A DNA stretch of 62,893 bases, counting the filler, from Reclinomonas americana ATCC 50394 (Eukaryota): the NCBI GenBank assembly GCA_048213135.1. It is 9 parts of 3 records of this genome, joined end to end, with 100 filler letters (N's around TTAATTAATTAA, not from the genome) between each part and the next. Parts side by side here need not be neighbours in the genome. Positions count along the whole stretch, not along the records: positions 1 to 13,166 come from PS015302.1; 8 more parts are not named here. One strand, 5' to 3'. Both the position numbers and the translations under genes were made by a program. Positions within the stretch are counted from its first letter, which is position 1. Each line of letters opens with the position of its first letter. The notes under the pieces are model-generated. The model made no database searches and was not told the origin of the DNA. It worked only from the letters and a program-made list of their open reading frames with translations. Positions 1,795 through 55,800 of the stretch are shown piece after piece.

Positions 1795-4700
1795 GAGCGC
1801 GAAGCTTGTCCAAATTCCATTCGGCTTCCGAACGCGCCATGTCTGGTCCGAAACGTCCGGCAAACATGCGCTTGGCGACTTTGCAGGCGGTGCGACCGAC
1901 AATGCTGCGCACTTTCTCTCGCGTCCAGTTGCCTACGCCAGAGAGCACGCTGGTGGTAGAACAGGCAATGCTGTGCAACAACGCCGTGTCAGCTGCAGCC
2001 GGAAAGCAGACAGGACACGACACTAACGCAACATATCCACTTGGTGCATCTGCTCCGCCCGCAGCATGTCGCTCACCGACAGCGTCCACGAAGCGGAGGG
2101 CACATCGATCTTGTTGGCCACCACCGTATCGCACACCATCTGATAACCGTTTCTTCTGAATCCCTCAATCATGGCCTTTTGGTGCCACTCCGACACGTCC
2201 TGCATTGCACAATGAGGTTTGGGCCGCCGTCGCATGCAGTACGTGCTTGACCTAAAAAATCACCATAAACGATTTTCGATCGGCGACATCGTAGAGGAGC
2301 AAGAAGCCGTGCGCCTGTCGAAAGTACGAGCCGACAATGTGCATTGAACTGTCGCTCCCTGCATTCAACATAATAACAACATGTGGGTGATGAGAGTGCG
2401 CGAGCGGAGTGCAAAGGCGCACACACCTGGGGTATCGAGCAGCTGTCCACGGAAACCAAACGCGATACAGTCAGCAAAAAAATAGTGCGGTATAACAATA
2501 TCGATTGTAGTGCACACCCAGATTTCGTACACATGCCCGCTGTCCACGCGCATATATAACCTGTGCAACTCGGCTGCGACAACCGAGTGCTCATGTCAGC
2601 GAATTCACACACGCACGCGCACACACGCACGCACTACGCAACGGCCAATCGTAATGGTCTGTTGATCGCCAGCAACGCCACTGGCAGGAGCAAAGCACTC
2701 GCAAAAGGTACTCTTGCCAACTGCACTCAAAACACAACAGTAAGCCGATAACATCGCGTCGACAGGCAAGGATGACTGAAATTCCGAACCACCACGCGAG
2801 CCGAGCACCAGCAACTTGATGGTGCAGTGCGGCGACGCGGTGCCCCACTCTGGTTGCAGTTCAGTCTGCGTCACGCGATAGATACACACTCCAGTCAGTG
2901 TACACGTGCTGTGTGGCGCATCACTACGACTGCCATCGTACCGAGTATTCGGCAATCGGATACGCAGCGCGTTCTTTCGGCCGTGCAAACAATCGCGGTC
3001 CACCTGTGCGACGCCGTGATGAGCGACAAAAGCAAGTGGAGGAATGTGATGCAGGCAGTCGATTACAACGCAACGACCGTGCTTCTCGCGGTGGCGATCG
3101 GTGAGTACCACGGTCGCGCTGTGCAGGCGTGAATCCGCTTCACTCGCCGACTCCACGTCGCGCACATCGTCTTCGAAAAAGTTAATGTTGCGCAATCGCA
3201 TGGGACCAATCGGCTGTACACCAATATTCGGCAGTGAGTCAACACCACAGAGTCGTGTGTGCACTGTGACTAGGCGGCGCACATTCTGACCGCCACCAAG
3301 TAGGAATGACTTGGTTGAAATCAAGTCCCGATAGCGTTCAATGACCGCGTCATCCTCGGCTGTGCGTTCACGTCGTGAGCGAGCCACTGGCAAGCACATT
3401 AAAATCCACCAACCAAAGCGACGCACCTCGAGGGTTCTTGTCGAGCCAGTCCAAGGTATCTGCGAGTTTCTCCTGAAGCTGCTGGCGGTCGAGTAGTTTG
3501 TTTTTGCGCGTCAACTCTGCACCAAGCACAACGCTGTCAGCGTCGACACCAAGAAACAACGTGCACCACCACCACCAGCGGCAGCAGCAGTGCGCAACGA
3601 TGCTCGAGAAGCGACTGCAAGCAGCTGACGGTGTCCAGCAGCAGAGCGTGCGAGTCGGCGAGTTCCAGATACTTGCTCGAGTGGATGCGTGCGAGTCGCC
3701 GCTCGGCCTTGCTCTTCTCCGAACCCGTGGTCACCTCCAGCTCGCCACCCTCCACTTGCCAGTTGATATCGGAAGGAAGCGACATGTCAGCCACCTGCGC
3801 AGACATGTTCAGCGGAGACGTCACAGAGAGTGAGAGATGATGGTATGAACAATAAAGAACACGCAACATCGTCTCGTCCGGGCTCCGGTACCATCAGGCG
3901 CATGTCACTTGGATCGGCACCCACCATGAGTCGCAGCTTGAACGAGGCCGGCGGTCTCGAATCTGGACTCTTCCACTCCACCGAGCACCAGATAACGGGG
4001 TACACGGTCTCGCAGAGTGTCACCGGCTTGTCGTTGCGCAGACGCCTCCATGTGTGCTCATTGATACCTGCGTGCCGCGAGAGAAAGTGAGGGTGCCTGG
4101 ACTGGTGAAAATTAGTGGGCAACACTCGGAGCGAACCGCCGCGATGTTCGAGCACCACAAAGTTGAGTTTGCCGGGTTTCGGGCCGTGTGGAATGATGAC
4201 ATCGAGGAATTCGTCGGTCGGCTGGTGAGCATCCAGCAGGTACGCCTCCTGCTTGTCACCTGCCTTCCTGGCAACCGGCACGCCAAAAATCTGTGTGCGC
4301 AACGTGCCGGCCGTGGGTGCGGTGAGACACAGAGAGAGACAGAGGTCGCGCTGACGCTGGTCACGCACCTTGAACTTGCGATCGTCACTTTCGACCACCT
4401 GCGCCACTGTGTACGCATGCGAGAGCGCATCATCAAACTCGAACGACGCTCCCGGGTGACGTCCACTCAGTTTCGCTGCCAGAATGGCCGCCCCAATAGC
4501 CACTGCATCAGCCGGCTGCGGGACAAAGTGTGTTGTGTGCGCGAATGAGATTACACCTTGCGTCGACAACTCTGTGTGGACGTGTACACCAACCTCCTTC
4601 AGCACCGAGATGTTCTCGTGGAAGAAGCACCGATCGAGAAGAATGTTGAGCAGGTGGGGAATGTGGAACGCTCCGCCGCCAAGAATGACACAGTTGATGT

Positions 4701-6381
4701 CGCGTGGAGTTTTGCCAGCCGCACGCAGTGCATCGTGCACCGGTGTCAAGCAGCGACTGCATGGAGAGAGTGTGAGGCGCACTACCAGCATATGATTGTA
4801 AATGTTACACACAGCAGCACCTGTAAAGCGGAGCCGTCAAATCGTTGAACTGATCCCTCGTAATGGTCACCTCCAGCGACATGCCGTCGTACAGGTCGTT
4901 GATCGACACCGACACCGACACATCTGTCGACAGTGCGCTCTTGGTCTCGGCAGCATGGTGCAACAGGCGCACCATGGCATCGGCATGATTCCGAATGTCG
5001 AATTCGTGCTGCTTGCGAAACTCCTCGCAAAAGAACCTGTGCGCGTCGGGCGGGTTGAGAGATGAGGGGTTGAATGGCCATGCTATGCACTGCATGAGTT
5101 GAGCGAAACTGCACGAGACAGTGATCGAAATCAAAGCCACCACACTTGTCGGCACCGGCCGTTGACAGTACGCGCACCCCAACGGGGGAGAACTCCACAA
5201 TCGACACGTCGAGGAATGCGGCACCAATGTTGAAAACAAGACCAACACGGTATTCGTTTGCGTGATCCCAATAGTGAGCGATTGCCGACAGCGTCGACTC
5301 AGCCACCTGCGTGTATTGTCTGTGAGCAGGCCACGTGCACACAAGGGCTCCGTGCCCAACTGGACAACTGTTGCACTCACCAATGTGACACTGTGGAATC
5401 CGGCAAGCATGGCGGCGTCGGAGAGCGCACGTCGCTGTAGTGCCGAGAACACGACGGGTACGCTGAGAACAGTGTGCCGAACTTGCTCGCCGGCCGCCCG
5501 ACTTGCCGCCTCGCGTGCCTGCTCCAGGACCAGTGCCGTTACTGGGTGCAGTGAGAGGGGAAGAAAGGGAGAGAGAGAGAGGGAGACAATGTGTAAATGA
5601 AAGCGATTGTCGACTGCGAGACAAGTGCCGCGGATCACCTTCCTCGAACGCCACGGGGATCTGTCCGCCGGCCGTCTTCACCTTGGCCAGCGGCTTGAAG
5701 TACTTGTTTTGAAAGATCTCGTACACCCAGCGATCCTGCCGCTTCTCCTCAGTCAGCGTCGGCAACAATGGATCGTCTGCAGGTCGCCGTGAGGAAATCT
5801 TCAAACCCAACACACACACGCAGAGAGACGGGCACCCAACGAAAGCTGCGCCCGAGGAACATCTTGAAATCGTACAGTGTGTCGGCAGCATGCCGTGCAT
5901 GCCGCATGCGACTGAGGTAGCCCAACACGCGCGCTTGCTGACCAATGCCCGTAAACGTGATTTGCGTGCTCATCTCCACCGCCTGCGTCACAAGCGCATG
6001 ACGAACGTGCCCAAGAGACTACCAGTCACACGCACACACACGCAAGAACGCAACAGTGGTGTCGGGCACCAGGGGCTTATCAGGCGCCAAAGGATCCATG
6101 ATCAGCGTCGGTCGCACCATTGCCGCACTCGCCGCACCTCGACCACCTCCCTCATGTGCGCCAGTCGTCGTCCGCCGCACGTGATCCTTCTTCAGCTCAC
6201 CCACCCAAGGCAGCACGCGCGGCACCGGGCAGTCTGTGGTCTCTGGAGGTGTATCCACCAGTGCCACTCGCGTGTACGCCGATCCAAAGTCAATGCCACA
6301 CATAACAGGCGCAGCTGCGATGCCCGATGGACCTACTCCTTGTCCTCCTCCTCCACTGCCACTGCCACTGGCACGTCTCAT
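1795..6381 (-). CDS. Hsp70-like / Rab-like GTPase fusion protein, paralog 1 (multi-exon; 3' end lost in gap)
   Basis: Spliced translation: GIDFGSAYTRVA (Hsp70 phosphate-1), DTLYDFKMFLGRSF, VLSVPVVFSALQRRALSDAA, AESTLSAIAHY, VFNIGAAFLDVSIV, CGGFDFD, EEFRKQH, ITRDQFNDL, VILGGGAFHIP, DAVAIGAAILAA, lid DTLDWLDKNP. Then KLLVLGSRG|VGKS (G1), TITIG (G2), LLDTPG (G3), SYFRQAHGFLLLYDV, VVANKID (G4), IACST (G5). Confidence 0.85.
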
Positions 6382-6477
6382 GATTTTCGCGCCACACGAT
6401 GATCGGATATCACAGTGCCCGTTGGTCCGGCGGGTGGTGGATTTGTGCGAAACTGGATTTTCTCATTCCTTACGTAA

Positions 6478-8618
6478 ATGCCGCGACAAAAAGCTGACTC
6501 TTCCGGTGATGCCCCCAAGAAGCCCGGTGGTCCGTTCATTCAGTTCCTGCAGGAGGCGCGGCGCGGGCATATTCCAGTTACGTGAAAAGAGCTTCTCGCA
6601 AAGCACTTCGGAAATGCGGCTGTGACAGGTTGGATCCTGATGGTTTTTCTGCTTTTTTCTCGTCGTCTGTGCACTCGGTGGATGTAGGCTCTTGCGGGAG
6701 TGGGTGGAGGTGATCTGGCCGTGCGCGCTGGCGAGGTGTGGCGCAGTATGACGGACGAAGACAGAGAGGTGCGTGTGAGTGTGTGTGTAGACAGCGCAGA
6801 GTGTCTCTCACTCACCATCGCCTTGATGGTGAAGCCGTACCTGGCCATGGTCAGAGAGGCGACTGAGCGCTACCACGAGTACATGGTGAGCTTGGGCGCG
6901 GCGGCAGCGGAAGGCAGCCACAGACCAGCCCGATCGAGACGATCACACGTTTCCAGACGAGGTGCAGATTCACCATTGCTTTCGTCGTCGTCGTTGTCGT
7001 CCTCGGCATCCATGTCGTCGTCCACCACGCCGCTGTTGGATCTGGCCTTGTCGCGTGTGCCACCACCACCAAAGGTGAGAGAGTGATTACGCATGCGCAC
7101 CTCCTCTCCACACTGCAATCGCCGCTGCATATGGTGTGTGGTGTCCGGATGAAAAGAATCGTTGAAATCCTTTTCGCAGCCGCAGCCACTGACGGCCGCC
7201 GAGAGGTCAAGCGCGAGGTCTCCGACAGCAGCACGTGGCAAGCCGTCGGTGAGCGTGACGACACCGCCGCCCGGGGCTACAGAGTGATGAATGTGTGTTC
7301 GATATTCAGGATCACTCACCACCCACTGCACTCGTGCAGATGTTTGTGGGATCGGCGGTGTCGAGTGCTGCTGTGTCTGAGGTGACGCATCCATCGCCCT
7401 CCAGTGTATTCTCTTCGCCGACGCCGTCTCCACCGCCGCCGATGCTGCAAGCAGTGCCGAGACCAACAACAACCCTCTTGCAAATGCCACACAGATTGTC
7501 GACGACAACAACGCCAGAGGTGGTGCTTATTGGTGGTCTCTCGCATATTTTGGCAAGGGAATCAGTTGATACTCAAGTTGTCTCCGCGCAGTTGATGGAA
7601 CAAGGCGAGACCACGGCACGCAGAGGGGAGGTGGATTATGTTTTTTTTTGCAATTTGGTCGCGATCACTGTCGTTGTCTCACTCCACACAATTGAACCAC
7701 AAATAGGCAAGAGGAGCCATGGAGGTGCGCGCAGTCTCCCCAGCTGCAGCTGAGCGAGGGCAATCGCACTCGCTGTCAGCAGGGTCGTTCACAAAAGACG
7801 TGCGTTGTGTGTTTCTTGTCTTCGTCGTGTTGTTGTGCGATTGCGATTGACATCTGTGGTGGCGTGTCTCTCTCTGTGTACAGTGGTACAGTGTGGTGCG
7901 ACAGAATCTGGTGCGCGACAACCGGCGGTTTCTGGCCGAGTTGCAGCCGCTCGTGTACCTGCCACAGTCGAGTGCAACGGCCGGTCTCGTGCAAGTCTAC
8001 ATCATGTTTATGATTTGCAAGCGACTGCTGCAAGATGTCGACGGCACCCGGCTGCCGCCACCGACACCGGCAGTGGCACAGCTGTGGTGCGAGCACTCGG
8101 GGCATATTAACAGCTACACGGCGTTCTGCAACGCCCTCGCAGGGCAGACAATTGCCGTGCCGCATGCAACTCGGGTTGAAGTGGCGCTGTCGATGATGAG
8201 TGTTCCCGGGCCCGTCGAGAAGACCGTGACCGCGCAGCGGCTTCACGCGTTCAACTTGCTGCTTGCCACCGAGTTTGACACATCGTACGCCGAGACTGTG
8301 GCTACTGTTGGTACCGGTCGCACTCAGCCAGGTGCGTCGGCGAGCACCACCACCACCACCACCACCACCACCACGGCGGCGACGGTGAAGCGTGTGGCCA
8401 TTGTCGTCACGGCGGACGCACGAACACTGAACCTCAAGGTGAAACCGCTGTCGCTGATTCGGCAGTTGCTAAGCAAGCTGGCGGCACACTTGCATGTTCC
8501 AGAAAACGTGCTGCAGTTGCAACGACCCGACGGTGTGGTCCTGCAGCCAAGTGCGACGGTGACCGACTGTGGAATCGTAGACGGCGACCAACTGCAATGC
8601 GTCAGGCTATCGCTGTGA
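6478..8618 (+). CDS. HMG-box protein, probably continuing through an S/P/T-rich linker into a GRDP/DUF1399-like segment and a C-terminal ubiquitin-like domain (may be two genes)
   Basis: ATG 6478 MPRQKADSSGDAPKKPGGPFIQFLQEARR ... LAVRAGEVWRSMTDEDRE|PYLAMVREATERY is an HMG-box pattern. The last exon has LPPPTPAVAQLWCEHSGHINSYTAFC and a beta-grasp-like end (TLNLKVKP...LQPSATVTDCGIVDGDQLQC) stopping at 8618. Confidence 0.6.
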
Positions 8619-8739
8619 CCAATTCCATCCTTCTTTTTTTTTTTAGCCTCTCGTATTCTCTCCTCTCTGTTTCTCAATCCCGTGGGGTGCTCTCCCCTCC
8701 GTACAACCATTATTGCGAATCATGTACATATAACCATGT

Positions 8740-9163
8740 TTAACAAGCGCACTTTTGTGATTGTTGTCCCTCGTCAGTTGGTTGTGTGGCAGGTCTTTCG
8801 AGCGAGATCGTATCCGACCTTTCCGTGTCGGCCACAGACATGAGATCCTGTGTGTGCACACAGGTTGTGAGCATGTGGAGCACATTCGGCACTGTGGGAC
8901 GAAGAAAACACGCACCCTAAATCCATTGTCGCGCCGTTGTTGCAGTTTCTCGCTCGCCCATTCCGCCTCCGACTGCGCCATTCCGGGACCAAAGCAATGC
9001 GCAAACATGCGCTGCACAACAGTCTCGACGGTGCGACCGACAATGCTGCGCAGCTTATGCCGCGTCCAGTTGGGTCGCGTGTTGAACACTGCATCGGCAC
9101 TGCACGAGATGCTGTGCTCGAACTCGCCGTCATCAGAAGCACGTGACACACGGTGATGAACGC

Positions 9164-9252
<89 letters not shown>

Positions 9253-12200
9253 ACGTANNNNNNNNNNNNNNNNNNNNNNNNNNNNNNNNNNNNNNNNNNN
9301 NNNNNNNNNNNNNNNNNNNNNNNNNNNNNNNNNNNNNNNNNNNNNNNNNNNNNNNNNNNNNNNNNNNNNNNNNNNNNNNNNNNNNNNNNNNNNNNNNNNN
9401 NNNNNNNNNNNNNNNNNNNNNNNNNNNNNNNNNNNNNNNNNNNNNNNNNNNNNNNNNNNNNNNNNNNNNNNNNNNNNNNNNNNNNNNNNNNNNNNNNNNN
9501 NNNNNNNNNNNNNNNNNNNNNNNNNNNNNNNNNNNNNNNNNNNNNNNNNNNNNNNNNNNNNNNNNNNNNNNNNNNNNNNNNNNNNNNNNNNNNNNNNNNN
9601 NNNNNNNNNNNNNNNNNNNNNNNNNNNNNNNNNNNNNNNNNNNNNNNNNNNNNNNNNNNNNNNNNNNNNNNNNNNNNNNNNNNNNNNNNNNNNNNNNNNN
9701 NNNNNNNNNNNNNNNNNNNNNNNNNNNNNNNNNNNNNNNNNNNNNNNNNNNNNNNNNNNNNNNNNNNNNNNNNNNNNNNNNNNNNNNNNNNNNNNNNNNN
9801 NNNNNNNNNNNNNNNNNNNNNNNNNNNNNNNNNNNNNNNNNNNNNNNNNNNNNNNNNNNNNNNNNNNNNNNNNNNNNNNNNNNNNNNNNNNNNNNNNNNN
9901 NNNNNNNNNNNNNNNNNNNNNNNNNNNNNNNNNNNNNNNNNNNNNNNNNNNNNNNNNNNNNNNNNNNNNNNNNNNNNNNNNNNNNNNNNNNNNNNNNNNN
10001 NNNNNNNNNNNNNNNNNNNNNNNNNNNNNNNNNNNNNNNNNNNNNNNNNNNNNNNNNNNNNNNNNNNNNNNNNNNNNNNNNNNNNNAGTCGATATTGTGC
10101 ATCTTCTCAAAGCGAAGCAGGTCCGGGATGGGCAGTGCCGCCGGCTGATCCACCTTGTTAACCACCACCGTGTCAAACGCAAGTTCGTAGCCATTGCGTC
10201 GGTACCCTTCGATCATGGCTTGTCGGTGCCACGCAGTCAAGTCCTACAGCACAGAATCACCACCATTATGAGTGCACAGTCATTGAAGCGTGTACGCGCG
10301 CGAGTGTTTGTTTGACGAGCCTCAAGTGATTTCGGGTCGCTGGCGTCGCACATGAGAATGAAGCCATGCGCTCGACGGAAATACGAGCCGAGGATCCGCA
10401 TGGAGGCATCGCCACCGGGAGTGTCCATGAGCTGCAGGGGGATGCACGACCGCCTGTGAGGCCGACTGTCACACCAACCGACAACTAGAAAGACGCACCC
10501 AGATCTCGTACACGCGGCCCTCGAATGTGCGCATGTACAGTCGATGCAACTCGGCTGTACACATGAATCAGGTGCTGGTCGCAACAAAGTGCGGTGAAGA
10601 AATGCGACGTCGACGCAACGGCCAATAGTGATCAGATCATGCTCATCCGAGAGACCCGGCACTGGAGCAAAGCAGTCGCAGAAAAGTGTCTTTCCAACTG
10701 TTCATCATCATCAACAACAACAACAACAACAACAGTCAAAACCACGACGATGGCACTTGTCATGAGGGAATCAAATACCATTCTTGGAGCCGAGCACGAG
10801 CAGTTTCACCACACACTGCACCGCAGTGGCACCCCACTCGGGTAATATGGTCAGCTGCGCATCGGTGCGTCAGGGACACAGTACACGGCAGCACCGACAG
10901 TGGGCGACCTACGCAACCGAGTACTCTGCCGTCGGGTACTTGACCCGATCGTGCGGGCGAGCAAAGAGAGCAAAGCCGGCACCAAAAACGCGCTCCCTGT
11001 ACGCCAGTGGATCCATGGCTTTCCTGACGTTGCGACCCGAACCATGACGTCGTCGGTTCCGGCCGCTGTGATAGTGATGATCGGAGTGCTCCTTTGTTCG
11101 CAGTCGCAGCGGTGGTGACTGCAACAACAAAGTCGTGATGGGGCAGTCCACGGCACACTCGCAGCAGACCCGACAAAACAGCCAGACGTACCACATCTAC
11201 TTGCCCGAGGGCGACAAACTTGAGTCGCAACAGATGTGATAATCTCTCCATGACGTCGGCGTCGGGGGCTGCCGATTGGAGTCAGAATACAACGAGGAGC
11301 GGAAATCGAGCATTCACACGAACCTTGTGGCATCGCCTCCAGCCACTCCAACGTGTCTTGCACTGCACGAGACAGTGCTGAACGCACTTCGTGGTGCGAG
11401 TGTCGCAGCAGCTCTGACAAAATCGAATAGTATGTCGAGAAGTGAGAAGTGGACACACAGCAATCAAGTGAAGTGAGTGCGTGTACGAACGAGTGAAGAG
11501 CGCGGACTCTATGGACGAGATGCAGTTGAGCAGGCGAAGTTGCGGAGCAGAAAAGCGCGCGGCGGACTCTTGTGCGCGACGGATTTGGAGACGGCGTTCA
11601 CGAATCTTGCCCATCTTGGCGGGATGAAGGAATATCACACGGCCCTCGGCCACCACTGTGTCCTTCTCGTCGCCCTCGAATTTCTGGGATCCAAACACAG
11701 AGAGCAATGACTTGTCAGCACACAAATACGCGATCACTGCCAGCAAACCCCGGGCTTGTGACTTGCCGCTGAAAACAGCATATCGATGTCGCTCGGATCG
11801 TCTCCGACACGCAGGCGGATGCGATATGACTGCGACTCAGGCTCCGCCTCCGTCTCGGTGGTCAGGCGGCCGTGGATAACGGGATACACGGTTGATGAGA
11901 GCGACACAGGCTTGCCCCGAGAAATCAGTCGCCATGTTTCCTCTCGAATGCCTACCATCACGTGTGATGAGTGTGAGTGATTCATCCTTCTAAACATGGA
12001 AACAGTGCGCACTACCTCCGCGGTGCTCAAGGACGGTGATGAACGGAGACCAGTTTGGCTGGGCGGGCGATACTCGCAGATCCACTTCTCCGCCGGCAGC
12101 ACGGTGGCCATCGAGCGGATAGCCATGTTGTGCGTCCTCCTCTTGTGGCACACCAAATATCTGCAACATTGTTTCTCATTCAGTGCCGTCACTAACACCC

Positions 12201-13142
12201 CCGTCTTCTTCCTGCTTTTCTGACGCACCTCGTATTCGGTGGGCCCCACTCGCCGAGCCAATGTGTACCCGTGCGACAGAGCATCAGTGAACTGGAAATC
12301 GTCGGCTGGCGACAGCTGCTCGCTGAACTTGGCGCCCAAGATTGCGGCGCCCATCGCCACATCGTCGTCATCCTGCCGAGGCACACGATGAGAAGCAGGT
12401 GGGACAAAGAAAGACTTGACGAACGATTCGCACGCACCGCTTTCATGACTTGAATGTGCGAGTGGAAGAAGCAGCGCTCCAGCAACACGTCGTGCACTCG
12501 CGGAATATGCGACGCACCACCGCCCAGCACAACACACTCGATATCGTTGGGGGTGAGACCAGCATTGCGCAGCGCCTCGTGCACCGGTGTGAGACACGGA
12601 CTGTGAGTGTCGACAGCGGTGAGCGCGAGAATGTGACATGAAAGGGCAGTCTCACATGCTCGCCTGAGCAGGTGCGCTGTGACCTCATTCATCTTGGCTC
12701 GCGTCAGCCTGTAGTTCAAGTCGAGGCCGTCGTACAGATCGGCCAGTCGCACAATGTCCACATCGTCCGACGACAGGATCTTCTTCGCCTGCTCTGCTCG
12801 CTGCATGAGACGGATGCGGGCCACAGCATCGGTTTTCATCGAACGCCGATGCGCCGTTTGGAACTCCACACTCAACAGCCTGTGTGCGCACTGATGAGAT
12901 GCACGTCAAAAGCATGCGTACATACGCTCACCACAGCCGCGTAACTCGGCAATGGCGCTGTCGAATGCACGGCCACCACAGTCCTCGTTGCCGGCCGTGC
13001 CCAACACTCGCATGCCTTGTCTCGTCATTTCCACGATCGACACACTGCAAAATCGCGCTCCGAGCACATAGACCAGCACCGTGCGCTGCTTGTGACCGTG
13101 ATCCCAGTAGTGTGTGACGGCAGCAAGTGTGCTTTCCGTGAC
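8740..13142 (-). CDS. Hsp70-like / Rab-like GTPase fusion protein, paralog 2 (5' part lost at contig end; ends in CXC prenylation motif)
   Basis: VTESTLAAVTHY, VLVYVLGARFCSVSIV, CGGRAFD, AEQAKKILS, LTRAKMNE, VVLGGGASHIP, VAMGAAILGA, lid DTLEWLEAMP. Then KLLVLGSKN|VGKT, LITIG, LMDTPGG, SYFRRAHGFILMCD, VVVNKVD, ISCSA. The last exon 8740-8847 (after GT-AG intron 8848-8915) reads DLMSVADTERSDTISLERPATQPTDEGQQSQKCAC*. Confidence 0.85.
9165..9250. repeat. (CA)n microsatellite inside an intron, adjacent to a gap
   Basis: Direct inspection: long pure CA run. Confidence 0.95.
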
Positions 13143-13210
13143 CTGCAACGATGGTGGTGCATCAACNNNNNNNNNNNNNNNNNNNNNNNNNNNNNNNNNN
13201 NNNNNNNNNN

Positions 13211-13222
13211 TTAATTAATTAA
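13211..13222. other. Artificial scaffold spacer TTAATTAATTAA flanked by N runs (also at 28620, 34037, 36622, 40258, 42000, 52736, 58765)
   Basis: Identical 12-mer giving stops in all six frames, always centred in an approximately 100-nt N block. Confidence 0.95.
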
Positions 13223-13266
13223 NNNNNNNNNNNNNNNNNNNNNNNNNNNNNNNNNNNNNNNNNNNN

Positions 13267-13798: not shown

Positions 13799-16470
13799 TT
13801 AGAACGGGCGGTCGGTGAGAGACGGCACGGGGCGGGCCGCGAAGAAATCAATCAGCGTGTTGACGTCGCGCACGATGCGGTCCTTGGTGAAGCCAAAGTG
13901 TGCCATCACATCCTGCGATGAATGGTGAGCACAATGTCTGCATGACATGCAGTGGCTGTGATAATGGCGTACCTTCAACGGAGCGCTGGCACCAAAGGTG
14001 CGCATGCAGTGCTGCGCATGTGAGTAGCGGTCCCAGCCTGTGCAAAGAATCGTGAGTCAGTCGGGAGTGATGCAGGAGGGGAAGGAGGATCTCCTGGGCG
14101 CGCACCAACAGCGCTGTGGGCCTCGACTGCCAGCACCGGCACGCCAGCGGGGAACACGGTCTGCTTGTACTCCAGCGGCTGCTCCTCGAAGATCTCCCAC
14201 GACGGCATGGAGACCACGCGCACGTTCTGCTCAGGGGTGGAGAAAATGAGTCACGCATAATCAACAGCAGCGAGTGTGCACGTGGCGGTGTACGCACCCG
14301 GCCGGCCTCCTTGGCAGCGTCCACGCACAGCGACACCTCACTGCCCGACGCCACCAAAATCGCGTGCGGCTCACCGGCAAAGCTGTCGGTCAGAGCATAC
14401 GCACCGCGGAAGACGCCGTCAATCGACGAGCCCTGCAGCTGCGGCAGAGCCTGGCGCGACAGTGCCAGCACACATGGGCCATGGCGGCGCTCAATGGCCA
14501 CCGCATACGCACCCGAGGTCTCGTTGCCGTCGGCCGGGCGGATGTAGTACATGCCCGGCATGGCGCGCAGCATGGTCGGCACCTCAATCGGCTGATGTGT
14601 CGGTCCGTCCTCGCCGAGGCCAATCGAGTCGTGTGTGGCCACGTACACGACACCGTGGTGTGCGAGAGCCGAAAGACGGACAGCGCCGGCGGCGTAACCA
14701 ATAAAGTTGAGGAACGTGCCGCAGTACGGGATGAATCCACCGTACGCCGCCAGGGCGTTGCTGATGGCCGCCATGCCGTGCTCGCGCACGCCAAAGCGCA
14801 GGTAGCGACCCTCGTAGTGGTCCTGCGCACCACACAGGAGAGGTTTAGCAGAAGCACAGGGAAGTAAAGTGCAGCGGACATCGAAAACACCTTCTGGAAG
14901 TCGTGGCCACCCTTGATCTCGGTCAGGTTGGATGGCGTCAGATCGGCCGAGCCACCAATCAGTGTCGGCAGGTGTCGCGCAATGGCGTTGAGGGTGAGCT
15001 CCGAGGTCTGACGAGTGGCCAGCGCCTTGTCGCCCGGATGGTACTTGGGCAACGCATCGCGCCACGCAGTGCCGAGCTCGCTGCGAGAGAATGCTGCATA
15101 GTCGCCAGCCTGGTCCGGATGCTCGGCCAGGAAACGATCGACGGCCGCATGCCACTCGGCCTCCTTGGCCGCACCACGCTCCGCCGCCTCGTGGAACGCC
15201 GCACGCACGCTGTCGGGCACTACAAACGACTGCGCCGGGTCGAAGCCAAAGGCGGTCTTCAGGGCCGCCAAGTTGGCGGGTCCAAGCGGCGATCCGTGCA
15301 CTTTCTCCGTGCCGGCCAACACCGAGCCGAAGCCAATGGTGGTTCTGCGTGGAGAAGAATGAGAGAGAGAGAGAGAGAGCGCGCGCGAGAGAGAGAGAGG
15401 CGACGCAACTGCAGACGAATGATCGACGGGCGGTCGGTGACGGCGCGCGCCTCGTTGATGGCACGTCGAATGCCGTCGAGATCCGTGTCGCCGTTCTCCA
15501 CGTACTGCACATGCCAGCCGGCGGAGTGGAAGCGACCGTCCGTGTCCTCCGTGAACGCCAACTCCGTGCTGCCGTCAATGGAGATGTGGTTGTCGTCGTA
15601 GATGAGAACCAGGCGGCCGAGACCGAGGTGACCGGCCAGCGAGATGGCCTCTTGCGAGATGCCCTCCATCAGGCATCCATCGCCGCAAAACACATACACG
15701 TAGTGATCGGCGACCTCCGGAGCGAAGCGCTTGGCCAGATGGTGCTGCGCAATCGCAAAGCCCACCGCGTTGGCCAACCCCTGTCCCAGCGGACCCGTGG
15801 TGACCTCCACTCCCGGCGTGTGGCCGCTCTCCGGATGGCCCGGCGTCCTACGCGACACGATGATGAGGAGACGAGAGGCAAACGAGGGAAACAGCGCCCT
15901 GTCTCTTGGTGTACGCAACAGAGAGCCGAGCGAGCGGAAGCGACGCAGCTGGTCCAGCGACATATCCTCGACTCCCATCAGATGCAACATCGTGTACAGC
16001 AACTGCACAATCACAACTCACTCAGCACCCCTCGAGACACAGCAGCAGAGGAGACTCTCACGTAACTGCACAGCCGTGACCATTGGAGAGCACGAAACGA
16101 TCGCGGGCGTACTGCAAAAGAAGAGCACAATGTGAGCAATCAAATCACAGATGCAAAGATGCGTTTTGTGTGAGCAATGTGAAGGGTGGTAAAGCAGCGT
16201 ACCCACGAGGTGTTGCGCGGGTTGAAGTTGATGAACTCCTTCCACAAGACGTAGGCCACAGGCGCCATGCCCAGCGGCATGCCTATTCACACGCACACAA
16301 AGAAGACAACACACACACAAAGACGAGGGAATCAGCTTCGTGTCTCTCTCTCCTCTGTGCGTGTACATCATGTGTCACATGCCTGGGTGACCAGAGTTGC
16401 CGGCTTGCACTGCGTCGGCGGCAAGCACGCGGATGGTGTTGATGGCCAGTGTCTCTGCCTCGGAAGCCAT
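13799..16470 (-). CDS. TKT: Transketolase
   Basis: [54 protein letters not shown] (ThDP motif), [55 protein letters not shown]; stop at 13799. Confidence 0.97.
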
Positions 16471-17643: not shown

Positions 17644-17710
17644 TCAGATTCACCATTTCACTTGGTGAACCAACCACCTCACCAACACATAACATCACAC
17701 ATCTCGCACC

Positions 17711-18725
17711 ATGGGGGACAGCGGCGACGACGACGACTGGATCGAGTATTTTGACTCCACGTCGCACCGGCCGTACTTCCTCTCGCTGCGCACTGGCGCA
17801 TGTCAGTGGAACCGGCCTCTGGCGGGCACAGCGCGCGTCATCCGCCATGTCAACTCCAACAGCGAGCACCCCCCGCCGCCTCCACCTCCTCCCTCACACC
17901 CACCAGCACCCGGCCAGCCGCACCATCCTCCTCATCACCACCACCACCACCAGCCTTCTGGCCCACCTCGCTCACTACCAGTGCCGCCACCGCCTGGATC
18001 GCGGCCCTCTTCCGGCTCCAATGCACACCGTGCGCTCTCCAGCTCCGCCGATCCCGACTCTCTGCGCAAGCCCGGTGCTGCTGCAGTGCCGCCTCCGGTG
18101 CCTGCCACTGCGCCTCCACCACGTCGACTCGGCGCCGACCGTCTCGCCATCTTTCAAGGTGTGTGTGTGTGTCTGCTTCCTGTGTGGTTCCATTCAATCA
18201 TCTCAATCATCTCAATCATCATTCAGCCGCGGCTTCATCGGCGGCTGCGCCCTCCAATGCGCCACCGACGAGGCAACGAGCGCCGGCGGACTCGCATGTG
18301 TCGCCACCGCCACCACCGCCACCACAGGCGGTGGCAAGTGGCGAGAGTGCGGGGCCACGTGGTGGTGAGAGTGATGGGCAGGCATCTGAGACCGCCGCCC
18401 AGGCGCTGCTGAGGAGGCCACCGCCGCCAGTGCCACCGCCGCGACGCTCTGCGGCGTTTAATGATTCGGCGGTGGGGACGCAACTGAGTGATGGTGATGG
18501 GAATGCGACGACGACCACCACCACCACCCCAGCGCGCAGCAGCAGCGTCGAGTGGATCGCCGTGGAAGTCGCCGTCGTTTGCTCCGCCTCCGGTCCCGGC
18601 ACGCGCGCTGCCTGTTGGTACGTTCTCTCCACTCCCATCTCTCCCCTTGTTGCACACTGATTTGCATGTCGCCGGTACAGTCCCGCCCGTCGCCGCGTCT
18701 GATCCACCACCGCCTGCTGGTACGT

Positions 18726-28494: not shown

Positions 28495-28689
28495 GCAGTC
28501 TCTCCAACACCGCGCAAGCAAACAATGAACGTGTACGTATTCAATGGACGTCGCCAGGTGAAAAAGTCCTGTCCTNNNNNNNNNNNNNNNNNNNNNNNNN
28601 NNNNNNNNNNNNNNNNNNNTTAATTAATTAANNNNNNNNNNNNNNNNNNNNNNNNNNNNNNNNNNNNNNNNNNNNAACATACACGGCCT

Positions 28690-31243
28690 CGGCGCCCGAA
28701 TCCGCGCCGCGTCGTCGGCGACGCCGAGAGCCGGGACTGAGTTGCGAGTCCTACACACAAGAGGCATGAGAGAGGTGCAACATCCATTGCAGCCACAAAA
28801 AAAACACAAGCAGACCTCGCCATCCGCTCCGCCATCCAACAACTGCGACTCCTCCTCGGCGTCCTCGTCAGGGTAGATGGCCTCCGAGGTCTCCAGAGAC
28901 AAGTCACCGCTCTCGGCCCGCTTCTCTCCTTCATCATCATCGTCGTCGTCATCGTCGTCATCATCATCATCGTCGTCGTCCGACGCCATGTCAGCGTCTC
29001 CGTCACTGTCGCTCTCCTCGTCGCGGCCACGCTTGCCACCCTTCTTACCAGCCTTGCCCTTCTTCTTCTTGGCCGCGGCCTTGGCTTTCTTGGCTGCCTT
29101 GCTCTGCTGTTGCTGCCTGGCGGCCGCGGCGGAGGTGGCGGTCTTGGCACGCTTGGACGGCTGTCGGCCCTCGGATGCAGTGGGAATATCGACCTCCTCC
29201 AGCTTGGCCGTCTTGTAGATACGAGCTCGACCTGCACGCAGTGTGGCCAGGCGCGTGTCGGCGTCGGCCACTTGCGCCTCGATCTTGATTCTCTCGTCGG
29301 TGCGCTGCTTACGATCGGCACGAAGCTGCTTCACCTTGACCTCCAGCGTGTCGCACGCCGTCTTGCACTCTTCGCGCTGCTTCAGTGCCGTCCGCACCTC
29401 CTCGCGCAGCTGCACACACACACAGAGTCACGCCTCAGTTTCGAGTCACATGAGCAGCAACAGCAGCCACCGAGTGTATCAGAACGCACCTCGTCGACCT
29501 TGCTCTGCAACTGCTGCTGCGTCTTCTGCGCCTTCTTCAGCTCCTTTTCGGCCTCCTCCACCTGCTTCGTCAGGTCGCGCTCCGTGTCGGCACTGACACG
29601 CGCACTCTCGTACTCGATCTTGGCCTTGACCTTGTTGATCTGCTGCTCGTACTGCGACCGTTTCTCGATCTTCTCCATCGCCGTGCGCACATACTTCTCC
29701 TCGTACTCGCGGATATCGCGCACACCCATCTGTCGCGAGAACGGGCGGAAAATGTCGTCGGTCTTGCGCGCCTTTTCGCCCTCGATGCGGTCGATCTCTC
29801 GCCTGCGCTTTGTCTGCGTGTCCTCCAGCTGCGCATCACAAATGGGTGAGGAGAGACTGCCTACAAATCATGGGCGGAGAGAGAGAGAGAGCGCGCACAC
29901 AGTACACACCTCCAGCAGGCGTACACGTCGATTGGCGATCTCGGCCTCGGTCTGCGCCAGATCCTTCTCCAACTGTGTGACCTTTTTCGTTGTGTCTTCC
30001 AGGTCCAACGTGATGCTGCTGATCTGCGACTCCAGTGTCACGCGCTGCTGATTCAGCTGGTTGACACGAGACACCAGATCCGACTCTTCTTGTCGCAGAC
30101 GACGCATGTCCGATCCCTGCCGACCGTTTTTGAGCAACGGAGAGAGGGGGAACAGACGGACTTGCACACACACACACAACACACCTGAGTGTCACGAAGC
30201 CTCTTGAGCTCCTCCTTGGAACGGGTGCCGTCGGAGACCTTGGCTGCACGCTTACGCAGTCCCGAGTGGCCACTCGCCATCAGACCGTTCTTGTGAATGA
30301 CGGCACCGTCGAGGGTGGCCGCCTTCACTCGAATGCTGCCGCCAAAGCAATGACGCCGTGCCTCGTCCAGCGAGTCACAAATGATGGCGTTGGCGCAGGC
30401 AAACTGCACGGCGCGCTCGATTGTCGGGTCGCACTTGATGACATCGAAGGCCAGCTTGGCGGAACCTCCGAGCTGTCGCAGATGCTCGTTGATCGGCTTG
30501 ACCTTGATGGTGTCGAGCGGCAGGAATGTCGCCACACCCGTCTGATGCTCCTTCAAGTACGTCAGGCACTCCTTGGCCGTCTCGGCCGTGTCCACCACCA
30601 CGGCGTCGAAATTGCGGCCAAAGAGTGCCGTCACCGCCACCGTGTACTCGCGACGCATCTGAGAGTGACAAAAGAGAGAGAGGGAGAATCTGTGTCAACG
30701 ACGACGACACACACTGATTCAAGCGCAAAAAAAATGCACCTGCACAAGGTCATGCAAGCGACCCTTGACGCCTCGATTGGTGAGCTTCATCTGCTCAATG
30801 GCGTCCTGCATGCGTCGCTCACGCTGCGTCTCCTGCTCCGACGACCGCGCCGACTGCAGCTCCGTCTCAGTCGCTGCCTGAGCCTGCGCAAGTGCAGTCT
30901 TGCGCTGCACGATCTGCTGCTGTTGGTTCTCCGTCTCGCGAATGTCGGCGACGAGCGTGCGCAGCGCCTGCTTCTTGGTCGACAGGGCCTCGGCAAGCTG
31001 CTCCTTGCGATGCACGCCTACAGAAAAGGAGTGAGGTAGTCTGCCGCAAGCAGCGAGCCACATGCAGCACACACGCCGCAACTCTTGTCGAGGCGATCGT
31101 GATGGTGGCCCTTTTGTGTGGCCAACCGCTCCGACTCGCCCTCGAGGAGGCGCTGCATCTCCGCGTCGGAGGCCGCCTGTCGAGTGAGCTGATTCAGCTG
31201 CTGATCGAGTGTGAGCGTGGCCTGCCCAGCATCCTCCTTCCTG
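28690..31243 (-). CDS. SMC1: SMC1 hinge and coiled-coil arms
   Basis: GVKGRLHDL, YTVAVTALFGRNFDAVVVDT, ATFLPLDTIKVKPINEHLR, VKAATLDGAVIHKNGLMASG, IFRPFSRQMGVRDIREYEE, KLEEVDIP. Confidence 0.92.
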
Positions 31244-33974: not shown

Positions 33975-34092
33975 GCACGTGCATTCCTGCTANNNNNNNN
34001 NNNNNNNNNNNNNNNNNNNNNNNNNNNNNNNNNNNNTTAATTAATTAANNNNNNNNNNNNNNNNNNNNNNNNNNNNNNNNNNNNNNNNNNNN

Positions 34093-52807: not shown

Positions 52808-55800
52808 CTAATGTATTGGAAGGCCTCCTCCACCGAATGCTTGCGGGTGTCGAGAATGATGCGTTGGAAGCTGGCCGACACAATCTGCAAGTCCACGCAC
52901 AATGAGCAAAGCAAGTTACACAAATATGGTCACGCACGACGCACCGTGCATCCCATGTCGCGGAACGTGGCCAGAAGGTGCATCAGCACCTTGTGCATGA
53001 TAGAGTGCACCACCGTGTGCAACGCCGGGTCGTGCATCATCGACGAGGGTGAGCGTAGCCAGCTACATGCGACAATGAGCTTCATCGTCGCGCGGTGGGA
53101 ATCGACAAAAAGACACACACTGACCGATAGATGTTGTGGAGCAGCTTGTCGGCGAGATTGTTGCGTGTGACGCGCAGATCGTTCAGCCAGTTCACAATAG
53201 TCTGCTTGAGGACACGGAAGGCACTCATGCACATGGCCGACTCGTCCTGCCATGCCCACCGCCGAGCCCACTCGGCCGAGGCTGCAGCAGCCGCCATTTG
53301 TGCCCGACGATTGCCCTGGCTGGCACCACCGGCGGCGCCACTGGCTCTGTGCGCATGCTCGGCGTGAGATACGGCGCTCGTCACCACACAGACATCACAG
53401 GAGAGCACGCAACATTATTGACTCAGCCTCTCCTCCGCCCGCCGCGGCCTGCTGCGCAAACGCATTGGCCACATTCGCGGACGCCAGTGACGACGCTGAC
53501 TCGTACAAACTCAACGCATCGGCACCTGTACGGACACACAGTGTCAGTCTACTCGCACGGCAACCAATGACCGACCGATACTGCGCGTGCGACTTGCCTT
53601 CCAATGAATAGATGATCTGTGAGGCGATGATGGAGTTGACGTCGAGCGCCGACACCTCCAGCTCGAGGCACACGGTCCGATAGATGCCAGGTGTGGACAC
53701 GTGCGGATTGCGCGACGATGAGCAGCCGCTGCCAGGATGCGCAGCCACACTCTCGAGAATCTCAAACGAGTTGAGCAGTGCGTCGTCCTCCTCGATGCCT
53801 CCAAGATCCGGCAACGTGCTATCCGACGCCCACAACAGGTGATTGTGCTCGCGCAACGATCGAGCATAGTGCAAGTCGGCTGTCTGCAGAATGGGATCGG
53901 CGTCGAGATTGCCGACAGGCACCTGAGCGTATGCCGACCACACCAACGAGTCTTGAACCTGTGCATCACGGTTGTGAGATGACCTGACTGTCGTTGACAT
54001 CGCCACGATCAAGTTGCGTACCATGCTCGGAATCCACAGCAGGCGCCACACAAGCGCGTGCGCCACACGCCGCTGGAACCACTGCAGCATGGTGAACTCG
54101 GCCGCGTCGGAGACCCAGTGTCCGCGAATCACCGGCAACTCTTGCAACACCTGCACACGCACACAGATGGTGGCGTGAGAAACACAATGTCGGCGGCAGC
54201 TGCACCCATCGAAATCCACGCAACCGGGAACTGGCGATGCAGTGTCGAGTTGTCCAGTGGCGAAGAGGCAATGACTACGGTCGGCGCGCGCCTCGAGGAT
54301 AGGTACTGTGTAAGTCGATTGTGCAGGCGACCAAAGGCCTCCGCATCAGTGGCGGCAAATGCCGTCTGTAAGTGTGGCGTGTGGCAATGAGTCAGTGGTC
54401 GACACCCTTACTTGCGTGGATGCATCATTTGATGGCCACACCTCAAACTGCCAGTCGGGAGCCACCGATCGGTATGGTGTGTCGGCACGTCTGAGGCACT
54501 CGCTGAGAACACGCTTCCATCGCGGTTCCTCGTGTGTGGTTGGCCCGACGGCCACCACAAACACCTTGCCGCTGCTCATGAAATCGAACTCCCCAATGGC
54601 AGGCTACGGCGAAAATGAGTCACGACAACTCATCTCCAAACACTCACAGGAAAAACACGACGCAACATCGCTGGCATGAACGCGCGAGGGCACAGGGTTG
54701 GGCATGAACAATGCGTACGCCGCTCGCTTGTCGTTCACATCGTCGGGACACATGTGGTAAAAGGCCACAGTGCGGAAGTTGCTCTGCTCGACGTACGAAA
54801 CGCCCGGCGATGCCGCCTCCAGATCCCGCAGCTGCAGCTCGTCATGCAGCGACTTGCGCGAGTCGCTCGACAGCTTCCACACGCAGCCGAGGCTGGCAAT
54901 GACGCGGAACACCGGCGGCACGTGCAACTCATACACGCCCTCCACGTCGCGCGACTGGAACTTTTCGTTCAGTTCCTGCGGCGCAACAACGCGGTGAGTT
55001 GCCGTGCCAAGTAACAGAACAAAGTGAGCACAAACCGCTCGCTTGCTGAGGAATTCTTGCTCGCTGAGTGAGACCTCGTAGAGGAACGAACGCGGACGGC
55101 ATCTGGGAAGAATGCGCGCGACATTGATCATGCTCTTGTCCTCGGTTTGAATTTCCTGCGACGAAACGATGAGGCGCTGGAATGCAGAAGTGCTTCACAG
55201 CAAATTACGGCTCACCGGCTGCGGCACAAAGCTGTTCAAGAAGAATACACGTGGTACGTGCACCGTCAGCGGATGCAATGCGGAACCAACGAGTGCCCAC
55301 ACGCGATAGACGCCAGGCTGCACACGTGTGTGATCAGCGGAAATCAATACATCTTGTCGGGCACACAAGCACGTACCCGCTGCAACTGCGGCACAATGGA
55401 AATCACACGAATGGGCTGATCACGCGACTGCCGATTGAGCAGCATGGACGACAGCAGTCCGCCGCCCGCACTGCGCACACAGTCGATTGAGTGTGACAAC
55501 GGACACAACATGTAATCTTCTCGTAGAGTACACCACACACCCTCGTTGTGCGCGTGGGTCCTGCTCTCCGGCATCGCTGGCCAACTTGCGTCGCTTCATC
55601 TCCTCGCGACCGACTCGCCACTGCGCAGTGCAGAGATGAGCACGCCGCCACCTCTTGGATCAAGAAAAAGACTGCGCTCTTCTGCGTACCTTCTCCTTGA
55701 CGCGCTCGAGCCACGTCTCAAACGTGGGATGATCGAAGAACTCGCGCCCGAGTGTTTCCTTGCTGGCATCTGCGCCGGTGAAGAAACGCTCCTCGAAGCG

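Follow-up and report, generated by a model that had tools for sequence, protein, structure and literature searches.

Two paralogous genes of Reclinomonas americana predicted to join an Hsp70-type nucleotide-binding domain and a Rab-like GTPase in one polypeptide

The stretch of DNA analysed here, referred to as the window, comprises 62,893 nucleotides (nt) of Reclinomonas americana ATCC 50394 (assembly GCA_048213135.1) and represents eukaryotic nuclear sequence at draft scaffold level, interrupted by 30 N runs, with a G+C content of about 55-60% outside the N gaps. On its minus strand lie two related genes: copy 1, which runs from 6381 to the edge of an N gap at 1794, and copy 2, which occupies approximately 13142-8740. 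An earlier examination of the letters of the window (the sequence-only reading) had described copy 1 as a diverged second copy of an Hsp70-Rab fusion. The evidence presented below indicates that copy 1 is probably a real, spliced, protein-coding gene for a single chimeric protein of at least 1038 amino acids (aa) that acts by the mechanism proposed at the end of this text. Its predicted order is an Hsp70-family nucleotide-binding domain, about 250 unrecognised residues, a short basic linker, a Rab-like GTPase and a conserved C-terminal block. The identity of the two domains, the continuous frame, an exon structure conserved in two old paralogues and the action of purifying selection have been demonstrated. 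Both copies are collinear, with an amino-acid identity of 29-59% that varies by region. A tblastx comparison of 6470-1795 against 13900-8601 returned 34 same-strand rows of high-scoring segment pairs, 15 of which form a single collinear chain; one pair of the chain, 5530-5393 against 13788-13651, was dropped as doubtful at 28% identity. When the spliced copy 1 protein was searched by tblastn across the window, these two copies were the only ones found.

The copy 1 model (Table 1) was obtained by enumerating GT-AG introns from the coordinates and choosing on three grounds: conservation with copy 2, branch-like motifs (CT[CGA]A[CT]) and a codon-usage score. It replaced the model of a dynamic-programming gene finder, which retained in-frame introns as exons. 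The curated model consists of 22 exons and 21 introns and its spliced frame is free of stops. All introns (21/21) are GT-AG and measure 35-97 nt (mean 70), and a branch-like motif is located 6-50 nt upstream of the AG in 18 of the 21. The weakest parts of the model are intron 1 (6039-5983, 57 nt), which carries no branch-like motif and is the least certain of all, the last intron (2027-1993, 35 nt) and the 16-nt microexon. The microexon was accepted because the reading frame and the DTPG motif both require it. In copy 2 the same LLDTPG residues are present without a following intron, and the 16 and 95 nt of copy 1 exons 19 and 20 add up to the 111 nt of the copy 2 exon.

This agreement extends over the whole junction between the two domains. 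Between the presumed lid and the mid-GTPase region, the exons of copy 1 and copy 2 measure, in nt, 90/90, 77/77, 139+62=201/201 (exons 14 and 15 against the single copy 2 exon 11118-10918), 76/76, 78/78, 56/56 and 16+95=111/111. Both copies share a donor directly after the TACTCG that ends exon 15, both flank exon 17 on its two sides with phase-1 introns, and both hold a branch-like CTCAC in the in-frame intron that precedes exon 10 (4136-4068 in copy 1). The motifs GIDFGSAYT, DFKMFLG, WLDKNPR, KLLVLGSRG and the post-intron VGKS, on which the sequence-only reading relied, were all found on the minus strand, and its six shared signature blocks recur in both copies (6/6). Its phase-1 intron interrupts the same G1 codon at 2789-2721 in copy 1 and at 10778-10698 in copy 2. 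The idea of two diverged copies with the same domain order is thus borne out by shared intron positions and phases and by equal exon lengths across the junction.

The proposal of a single open frame running from the lid into G1 stood only in part. The frame is indeed stop-free over 2605-3510, but the portion 2605-3426 contains four introns (3282-3214, 69 nt; 3074-3004, 71 nt; 2941-2866, 76 nt; 2789-2721, 69 nt), placed by copy 2 conservation, splice signals and codon usage, and hence corresponds to several exons. The unspliced frame stays open because the two 69-nt introns are in frame and stop-free and the lengths of the remaining pair sum to 147 nt (71+76). The equivalent stretch of copy 2 lies in different frames and is interrupted by a stop, which makes splicing obligatory there. 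The 40-nt intron suggested after WLDKNPR (3426-3387) is a legal GT-AG intron, yet one of 67 nt (3426-3360) is more likely, since its AG is preceded, at a distance of 20 nt, by a CTCAC and the next exon then measures 77 nt, as in copy 2. Long open frames are abundant in this DNA: the 49 kb at 13800-62893 contain 115 frames that run for 170 aa or more without a stop, many of which overlap on both strands. Therefore, the length of an open reading frame (ORF) is by itself weak coding evidence here. The lesson for annotation is that short in-frame introns, a frame-restoring pair of introns and a 16-nt microexon can mimic a continuous ORF and mislead readers and gene finders alike.

At the level of the N-terminal half, Pfam scans covered 12 ORF pieces and, with E values up to 1, 12 exons taken singly. 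Three of the 12 pieces were matched by HSP70, with a best E of 5.1e-20 on ORF 4805-5677. The single-exon scan placed it collinearly on exons 5-8 over profile positions 168-398, the curated cut-off being passed by exons 5 and 6 only. Among the matches listed for ORF 4805-5677 in the PDB, 60 out of 60 are Hsp70-family chains. The best PDB matches of exons 4-6 are HSPA6, Ssb1, Hsc70 and BiP, with DnaK ranking first for exon 5, and exon 2 shows a weak match to residues 40-75 of Hsp105 (FKMFLGRSF against FKRFHGRAF, E 0.87). A tblastn search of plasmids with ORF 4805-5677 yielded a single match, to HscC, which was not used. By sequence homology, the N-terminal half is shown to be an Hsp70-type nucleotide-binding domain.

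The nucleotide-binding motifs of this domain are partly altered. The phosphate-1 loop of Hsp70 proteins is of the G-I-D-L-G-T-T type, and its presumed counterpart GIDFGSAYT in exon 1 was identified by eye only; the roughly 70 aa that follow it have no equivalent in canonical Hsp70. In a residue-by-residue alignment, the phosphate-2 loop reads NIGAAF in copy 1 and VLGARF in copy 2, compared to DLGGGT in DnaK. The Glu of copy 1 that aligns to the Glu of the DnaK EPTAAA stretch is kept, as is the Lys of FKMFLGR on the weak Hsp105 alignment (E 0.87); we take these Lys and Glu to be catalytic residues of the Hsp70 ATPase site. The domain shares homology with canonical Hsp70 proteins (Hsc70/HSPA8, HSPA6, Ssb1, BiP and DnaK; PF00012) and follows them collinearly across profile positions of about 110-398. 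The locus differs from them in its altered phosphate-2 motif, in the extra residues of exon 1, in that neither a substrate-binding domain nor a lid could be recognised, and in its C-terminal GTPase. Hsp110/Hsp105 and Ssz1/HSPA14 are atypical, weakly hydrolysing Hsp70 relatives. The present domain resembles them in being divergent and in having altered catalytic motifs, but the comparison gave no evidence of specific kinship and those proteins have no GTPase.

The following region of about 250 aa fits an Hsp70 substrate-binding domain with its lid in length and position, and this assignment is offered as a positional guess. PDB profile searches with the middle exons retrieved chance-level matches only, and an ESM Atlas search with 3868-4290 reached a best score of 0.84, to unrelated domains of unknown function. 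An AlphaFold2 model of 3868-4515, run on the single sequence and with two translated in-frame introns included, had a mean predicted local distance difference test score (pLDDT) of 34.6 and was unusable. As to the lid that the sequence-only reading placed after the Hsp70 domain, WLDKNPR is present and resembles a lid motif by eye, and no tool recognised a lid.

The linker is the segment on which the unity of the gene depends. It is short and basic, covers 67 aa (aa 742-808) and is weakly conserved, with 24 identities among 48 aligned residues and 19 of the 67 residues unaligned. Such weak conservation would be understandable if an Hsp70-like gene and a Rab-like gene lying next to each other on the same strand had been duplicated jointly, the fusion being an artefact of reading through the spacer. 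In-frame Met codons in both linkers and the frequency of long chance ORFs in the window also speak for two neighbouring genes. This explanation is nevertheless improbable. The Met codons occupy non-homologous positions, the spliced paths of both copies contain no in-frame stops, and the Hsp70-like part is followed by no stop in either copy, whether spliced or unspliced. In addition, the 77-nt and 201-nt linker exons are equal in length despite their low identity, which indicates maintenance of the frame. A codon log-likelihood score, for which the linker was kept out of the 1730 training codons (13 segment pairs plus five stretches with Pfam support from other genes), picked the right frame in most held-out N-terminal exons. 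It reads the linker as coding in the required frame in copy 1 (3357-3075, +0.31 versus -0.28 and -0.57 in the other frames) and in copy 2 (exon 11118-10918, +0.14 versus -0.22 and -0.38).

The GTPase half was recognised by the Pfam Ras profile on one of the 12 ORF pieces (ORF 2252-2470, E 9.1e-05), its 22.5 bits lying just above the curated cut-off of 21.6. Its G1, G3 and G4 motifs read GSRGVGKS, DTPG and NKID in copy 1 and GSKNVGKT, DTPG and NKVD in copy 2. The affinity to Rab proteins was addressed with one exon-bearing copy 2 ORF, which makes it a partial test. In the PDB, 92 sequences matched this piece with E values up to 1; Rab3, Rab1/Ypt1 or Sec4 fill the first 35 places of the list, and a single Ral appeared among the 60 matches listed. 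It aligns to residues 53-116 of Rab3A, with DTPGGD facing DTAGQE, so the catalytic Gln after DxxG is replaced by Gly in copy 2 (DTPGG) and by Ser in copy 1 (DTPGS). The tail of copy 2 terminates in QSQKCAC and a stop, an ending of the CXC type, and CXC is a motif for Rab geranylgeranylation.

Like Rabs (Rab3A-D, Rab1A/B, Ypt1 and Sec4; PF00071), the locus presents G1, a switch-I TIG, a G3 DxxG and a G4 NKxD. Its YFR[QR]AHGF[LI]L aligns with YYRGAMGFIL of Rab3A, and copy 2 has a hypervariable-type tail ending in CAC. It departs from Rabs in the exchange of Gln for Ser or Gly, in the Pro of DTPG, in two additional residues between Trp and DTPG, in a conserved block of about 45 aa after G5 and in an N-terminal extension of about 800 aa before the GTPase domain. 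Exon 22 is 55-56% identical between the copies.

Whether these altered domains are still maintained was addressed by Nei-Gojobori counts on 14 ungapped segment pairs. These gave a non-synonymous rate (dN) of 0.573 against a synonymous rate (dS) of 1.82 in the Hsp70 half (ratio 0.31) and 0.338 against 1.62 in the GTPase half (0.21). In the control, shifted frames of the same alignments give a proportion of synonymous differences (pS) lower than that of non-synonymous ones (pN). Because segment pairs are chosen for similarity, the count was repeated over all 734 aligned codons of both models. The resulting dN/dS ratios, which are rough since dS is saturated, are 0.12 for the nucleotide-binding domain, 0.25 for the middle, 0.63 for the helical part (aa 621-741), 0.29 for the linker, 0.11 for the GTPase and 0.41 for the C-terminal block. 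In all six regions pN (0.26-0.55) is lower than pS (0.56-0.74), far lower in both recognised domains. The expectation of a dN/dS well below 1 in both domains was therefore realised, and neither a ratio near 1 nor frameshifts in true exons, the outcomes that would have spoken against a selected family, were encountered in copy 1. Taken as a record of coding constraint, these values show long purifying selection on both halves.

Copy 2, the comparator in these counts, presents several irregularities of its own. Its 3' part, of 104 aa, is stop-free as judged from a three-frame reading and the codon score. Intron 10320-10244 uses a GC donor (GCTCGT), the sole choice that preserves the conserved DLTAWH...AMIEGY exon. 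Opposite the 64-nt intron 4820-4757 of copy 1 lies a 63-nt in-frame block (12654-12590, 21 extra residues) without a frame-keeping GT-AG pair, which may be an intron turned coding or the mark of a decaying splice site. No counterpart of aa 1-261 was detected upstream of copy 2, where about 600 bases separate two 44-N gaps from the transketolase gene. Two further supposed irregularities were discarded: an intron, for which both copies show branch-like motifs, accounts for an apparent frameshift after VLEHRGG, and a 10-nt frame switch in the linker was rejected in favour of intron 11191-11119, which matches intron 3282-3214 of copy 1. A long (GT)n microsatellite (9167-9257) adjoins the 829-N gap at 9258-10086, within the intron that splits the copy 2 GTPase, and the repeat probably caused the assembly break there.

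These oddities, which could stem either from the draft state of the assembly or from incipient decay, raise the possibility that the pair is a decaying or dead lineage-specific chimera, two pseudogenes that were selected in the past only. The replacement of key catalytic residues in both domains and the lack of relatives in database searches would be compatible with it. It is, however, unlikely, as copy 1 retains 22 stop-free exons and 21 canonical GT-AG introns and, in each of the two domains, pN falls well short of pS. Moreover, the catalytic residues are replaced in both copies, which points to an old change after which constraint continued. An assembly or scaffolding artefact joining unrelated sequence is very unlikely. 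The scaffold is a draft with many N runs, but no N is present in 1795-6381, and the parts follow one another in the same order in both copies, at the identity levels given above. The preference of the sequence-only reading for a selected family over a mis-assembly is sustained by this order, kept twice, and by pN far below pS in both halves.

A number of observations weigh against copy 1 as a single chimeric gene. All its splice junctions are predictions from genomic DNA, and it is unusual for a microexon to measure 16 nt and for an intron to measure 35 nt. Exon 1 alone has no Hsp70 match in Pfam or the PDB. Residues 503-741 match nothing in Pfam (E up to 1) or in PDB searches with profiles of the two-copy alignments, and the helical part of this region is fast-evolving (dN/dS 0.63, with the saturation of dS noted above). 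Besides the in-frame Met codons of the linkers, the GTPase may be produced from a separate transcript with an internal promoter or start. The prenylation motif of copy 1 is not visible, its C-terminus falling in the N gap 1326-1794. Finally, no relatives were found, so the architecture is supported by a pair of paralogues from a single draft scaffold.

This last point derives from several searches. Word-index searches with the 'longer' candidate lengths returned no scoring relative for ORF 3787-4836, for the C-terminal block (1796-1999) or for ORF 4805-5677. HMMER with ORF 3787-4836 against 1.84 billion representatives gave two weak matches (E 1.1e-05 and 8.1e-05) that were not taken further. 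A metagenome scan with one alignment found no match. Another alignment retrieved a single metagenomic locus, which was rejected because it matched by chance over EGFRRNGY and its contig showed no similarity elsewhere. The designation of the family as lineage-specific fits this absence of relatives in the databases, although blank searches are weak evidence for it. At the level of titles and abstracts, a full-text literature search found no description of an Hsp70-Rab fusion.

Among known systems, one of the closest in logic is RJL, or DNAJC27 (RBJ), in which a Rab-like GTPase bears a J domain at its C-terminus and this J domain recruits Hsp70 in trans. The present locus likewise couples a Rab-like switch physically to the Hsp70 chaperone system. 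It differs in that the Hsp70-type ATPase is itself part of the polypeptide, on the N-terminal side, and Pfam found no DnaJ match on the 24 ORF and exon pieces scanned. Rab44, Rab45 and Rab46 are large multidomain Rabs with EF-hand and coiled-coil regions. TbFRP is reported to be a lineage-restricted FYVE-GTPase of Euglenozoa (PMC3593210). The locus shares with Rab44/45/46 and TbFRP a C-terminal Ras-superfamily GTPase preceded, in a long protein, by an N-terminal module of unrelated kind. Their N-terminal modules differ from the present one, and none of them is known to carry an Hsp70 domain. The architecture thus appears to be new and its modules well known, an Hsp70-type and a Rab-like domain in a novel combination.

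Regarding the surroundings of the two copies, they are not directly adjacent, being separated by 6400-8700, where plus-strand ORFs occur (e.g., 7851-8618). On the plus strand of 1-1325, a long ORF without a Pfam match, whose product would have a high content of Glu, Gln, Arg and Leu, reaches the gap 1326-1794. The 3' end of copy 1 enters this gap from the other side, and the two genes would converge. Pfam matched seven of the 61 long ORFs scanned in the window, and the genes identified in this way appear to be split by introns (Table 1). A recurrent pattern of 44 N, 12 bases and 44 N (e.g., 13167-13266, 28576-28675 and 33993-34092) looks like a scaffolder's convention with no measured gap size.

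Table 1. Predicted exons of copy 1, the two parts of copy 2 and other genes of the window
Feature	Residues (aa)	Position	Strand	Content and evidence
Copy 1 exon 1	1-114	6040..6381	-	ATG at 6381; GIDFGSAYT 6297-6271; codon score favours the frame
Copy 1 exon 2	115-162	5841..5982	-	DFKMFLGRSF (DFKMFLG 5871-5851); Lys is aa 154
Copy 1 exon 3	162-208	5639..5776	-	From junction enumeration; intron 5840-5777 GT-AG with branch-like motif
Copy 1 exon 4	208-261	5381..5541	-	Hsp70 nucleotide-binding domain; aligns to HSPA6 residues 138-195
Copy 1 exon 5	262-327	5110..5306	-	AESTLSA, Glu kept; NIGAAF 5231-5214; Pfam HSP70 E 4.1e-08, profile 168-231
Copy 1 exon 6	327-399	4821..5036	-	Pfam HSP70 E 3e-10, profile 233-305; HSPA6 residues 260-332
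Copy 1 exon 7	399-453	4594..4756	-	VILGGGAFHIP; Pfam HSP70 E 0.0078, profile 308-346, below cut-off; 60% identity with copy 2
Copy 1 exon 8	454-502	4369..4515	-	End of nucleotide-binding domain, conserved DALSH[AG]YT; Pfam HSP70 E 0.042, profile 361-398, below cut-off
Copy 1 exon 9	503-554	4137..4290	-	Middle region, IFGVP...VLEHRGG; terminal residues are those of the copy 2 exon; no Pfam or PDB match
Copy 1 exon 10	554-620	3868..4067	-	TVYPVI, RL.VG.DPSD; 41% identity with copy 2; no Pfam or PDB match
Copy 1 exon 11	621-686	3599..3794	-	Helical-looking, poorly conserved
Copy 1 exon 12	686-716	3427..3516	-	Terminates in WLDKNPR (3448-3428); 90 nt in both copies
Copy 1 exon 13	716-741	3283..3359	-	AEDDAVIERYRDL...GGGQN; 77 nt in both copies; positive codon score in frame
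Copy 1 exon 14	742-788	3075..3213	-	Linker; codon score +0.44 (3225-3076) versus -0.15 and -0.51 in the other frames
Copy 1 exon 15	788-808	2942..3003	-	LFARP..R..YP.AEYS; tblastx 66.7% identity over 21 aa; frame differs from the ORF of the sequence-only reading
Copy 1 exon 16	809-834	2790..2865	-	PEWG, GTPase strand 1, first half of G1 (GSRG); 76 nt in both copies
Copy 1 exon 17	834-860	2643..2720	-	Second half of G1 (VGKS), switch I (TITIG); 78 nt in both copies
Copy 1 exon 18	860-878	2518..2573	-	PELHRLYMR...VYEIW; 80% identity with copy 2; 56 nt in both copies
Copy 1 exon 19 (16-nt microexon)		2427..2442	-	LLDTPG (G3)
Copy 1 exon 20	884-915	2264..2358	-	GSDSSMHIVGSYFRQAHGFLLLYDVADRKSF; Ser at the position of the Rab3A catalytic Gln; Pfam Ras on ORF 2252-2470
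Copy 1 exon 21	916-973	2028..2199	-	WHQKAMIEGFRRNGY, G4 NKID 2115-2104; 61% identity with copy 2; alone no PDB or Pfam match
Copy 1 exon 22	973-1038+	1795..1992	-	G5-like IACS, then NWTR.K.RSIVGRT...RMFA..FGP.MA.SEAEW; truncated by N gap 1326-1794
Copy 2 main part		10087..13142	-	From the exon 5 counterpart to the 829-N gap; 14 exons, 723 aa, stop-free
Copy 2 3' end		8740..9122	-	C-terminal block, intron 8915-8848, 35-aa tail ...QSQKCAC, TAA 8742-8740
Transketolase		13848-15668	-	Pfam; appears intron-split
WW-domain ORF		17693-18412	+	Pfam; appears intron-split
SMC hinge protein		30053-30694	-	Pfam; appears intron-split
DNA polymerase epsilon catalytic subunit, pieces		53395-57479	-	Pfam; appears intron-split

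Hsp70 proteins normally reach membranes through J-domain partners, and Rabs normally act through separate effectors. In the mechanism proposed for the chimeric protein, which is drawn entirely from its motifs, the Rab-like end would be geranylgeranylated on a C-terminal CXC, as suggested by the motif of copy 2, and would serve as a membrane address that keeps the Hsp70-type ATPase at a particular membrane. This would be a covalent version of the recruitment of Hsp70 in trans by Rab-like J-domain proteins. Both sites would bind nucleotide but probably hydrolyse it slowly or not at all, a proposal made because the GTPase lacks its catalytic Gln and the ATPase carries NIGAAF in place of DLGGGT. 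The protein may thus behave as a nucleotide-dependent anchor or scaffold rather than as a fast-cycling chaperone. A bolder version, put forward only tentatively, is that this would be the first Rab-type GTPase with its own Hsp70-type ATPase in one polypeptide, in which a prenylated, GTP-locked address stations a slow, chaperone-like ATPase on one organelle.

If this reading is true, a covalent Hsp70-Rab chimera maintained under selection would represent a new wiring of both systems. Rab identity and Hsp70 action, which are elsewhere linked by J-domain adaptors, would be hard-wired in one lineage-specific family, and R. americana would offer a natural experiment in which an Hsp70-type domain is tethered by a prenylated switch devoid of its catalytic Gln.

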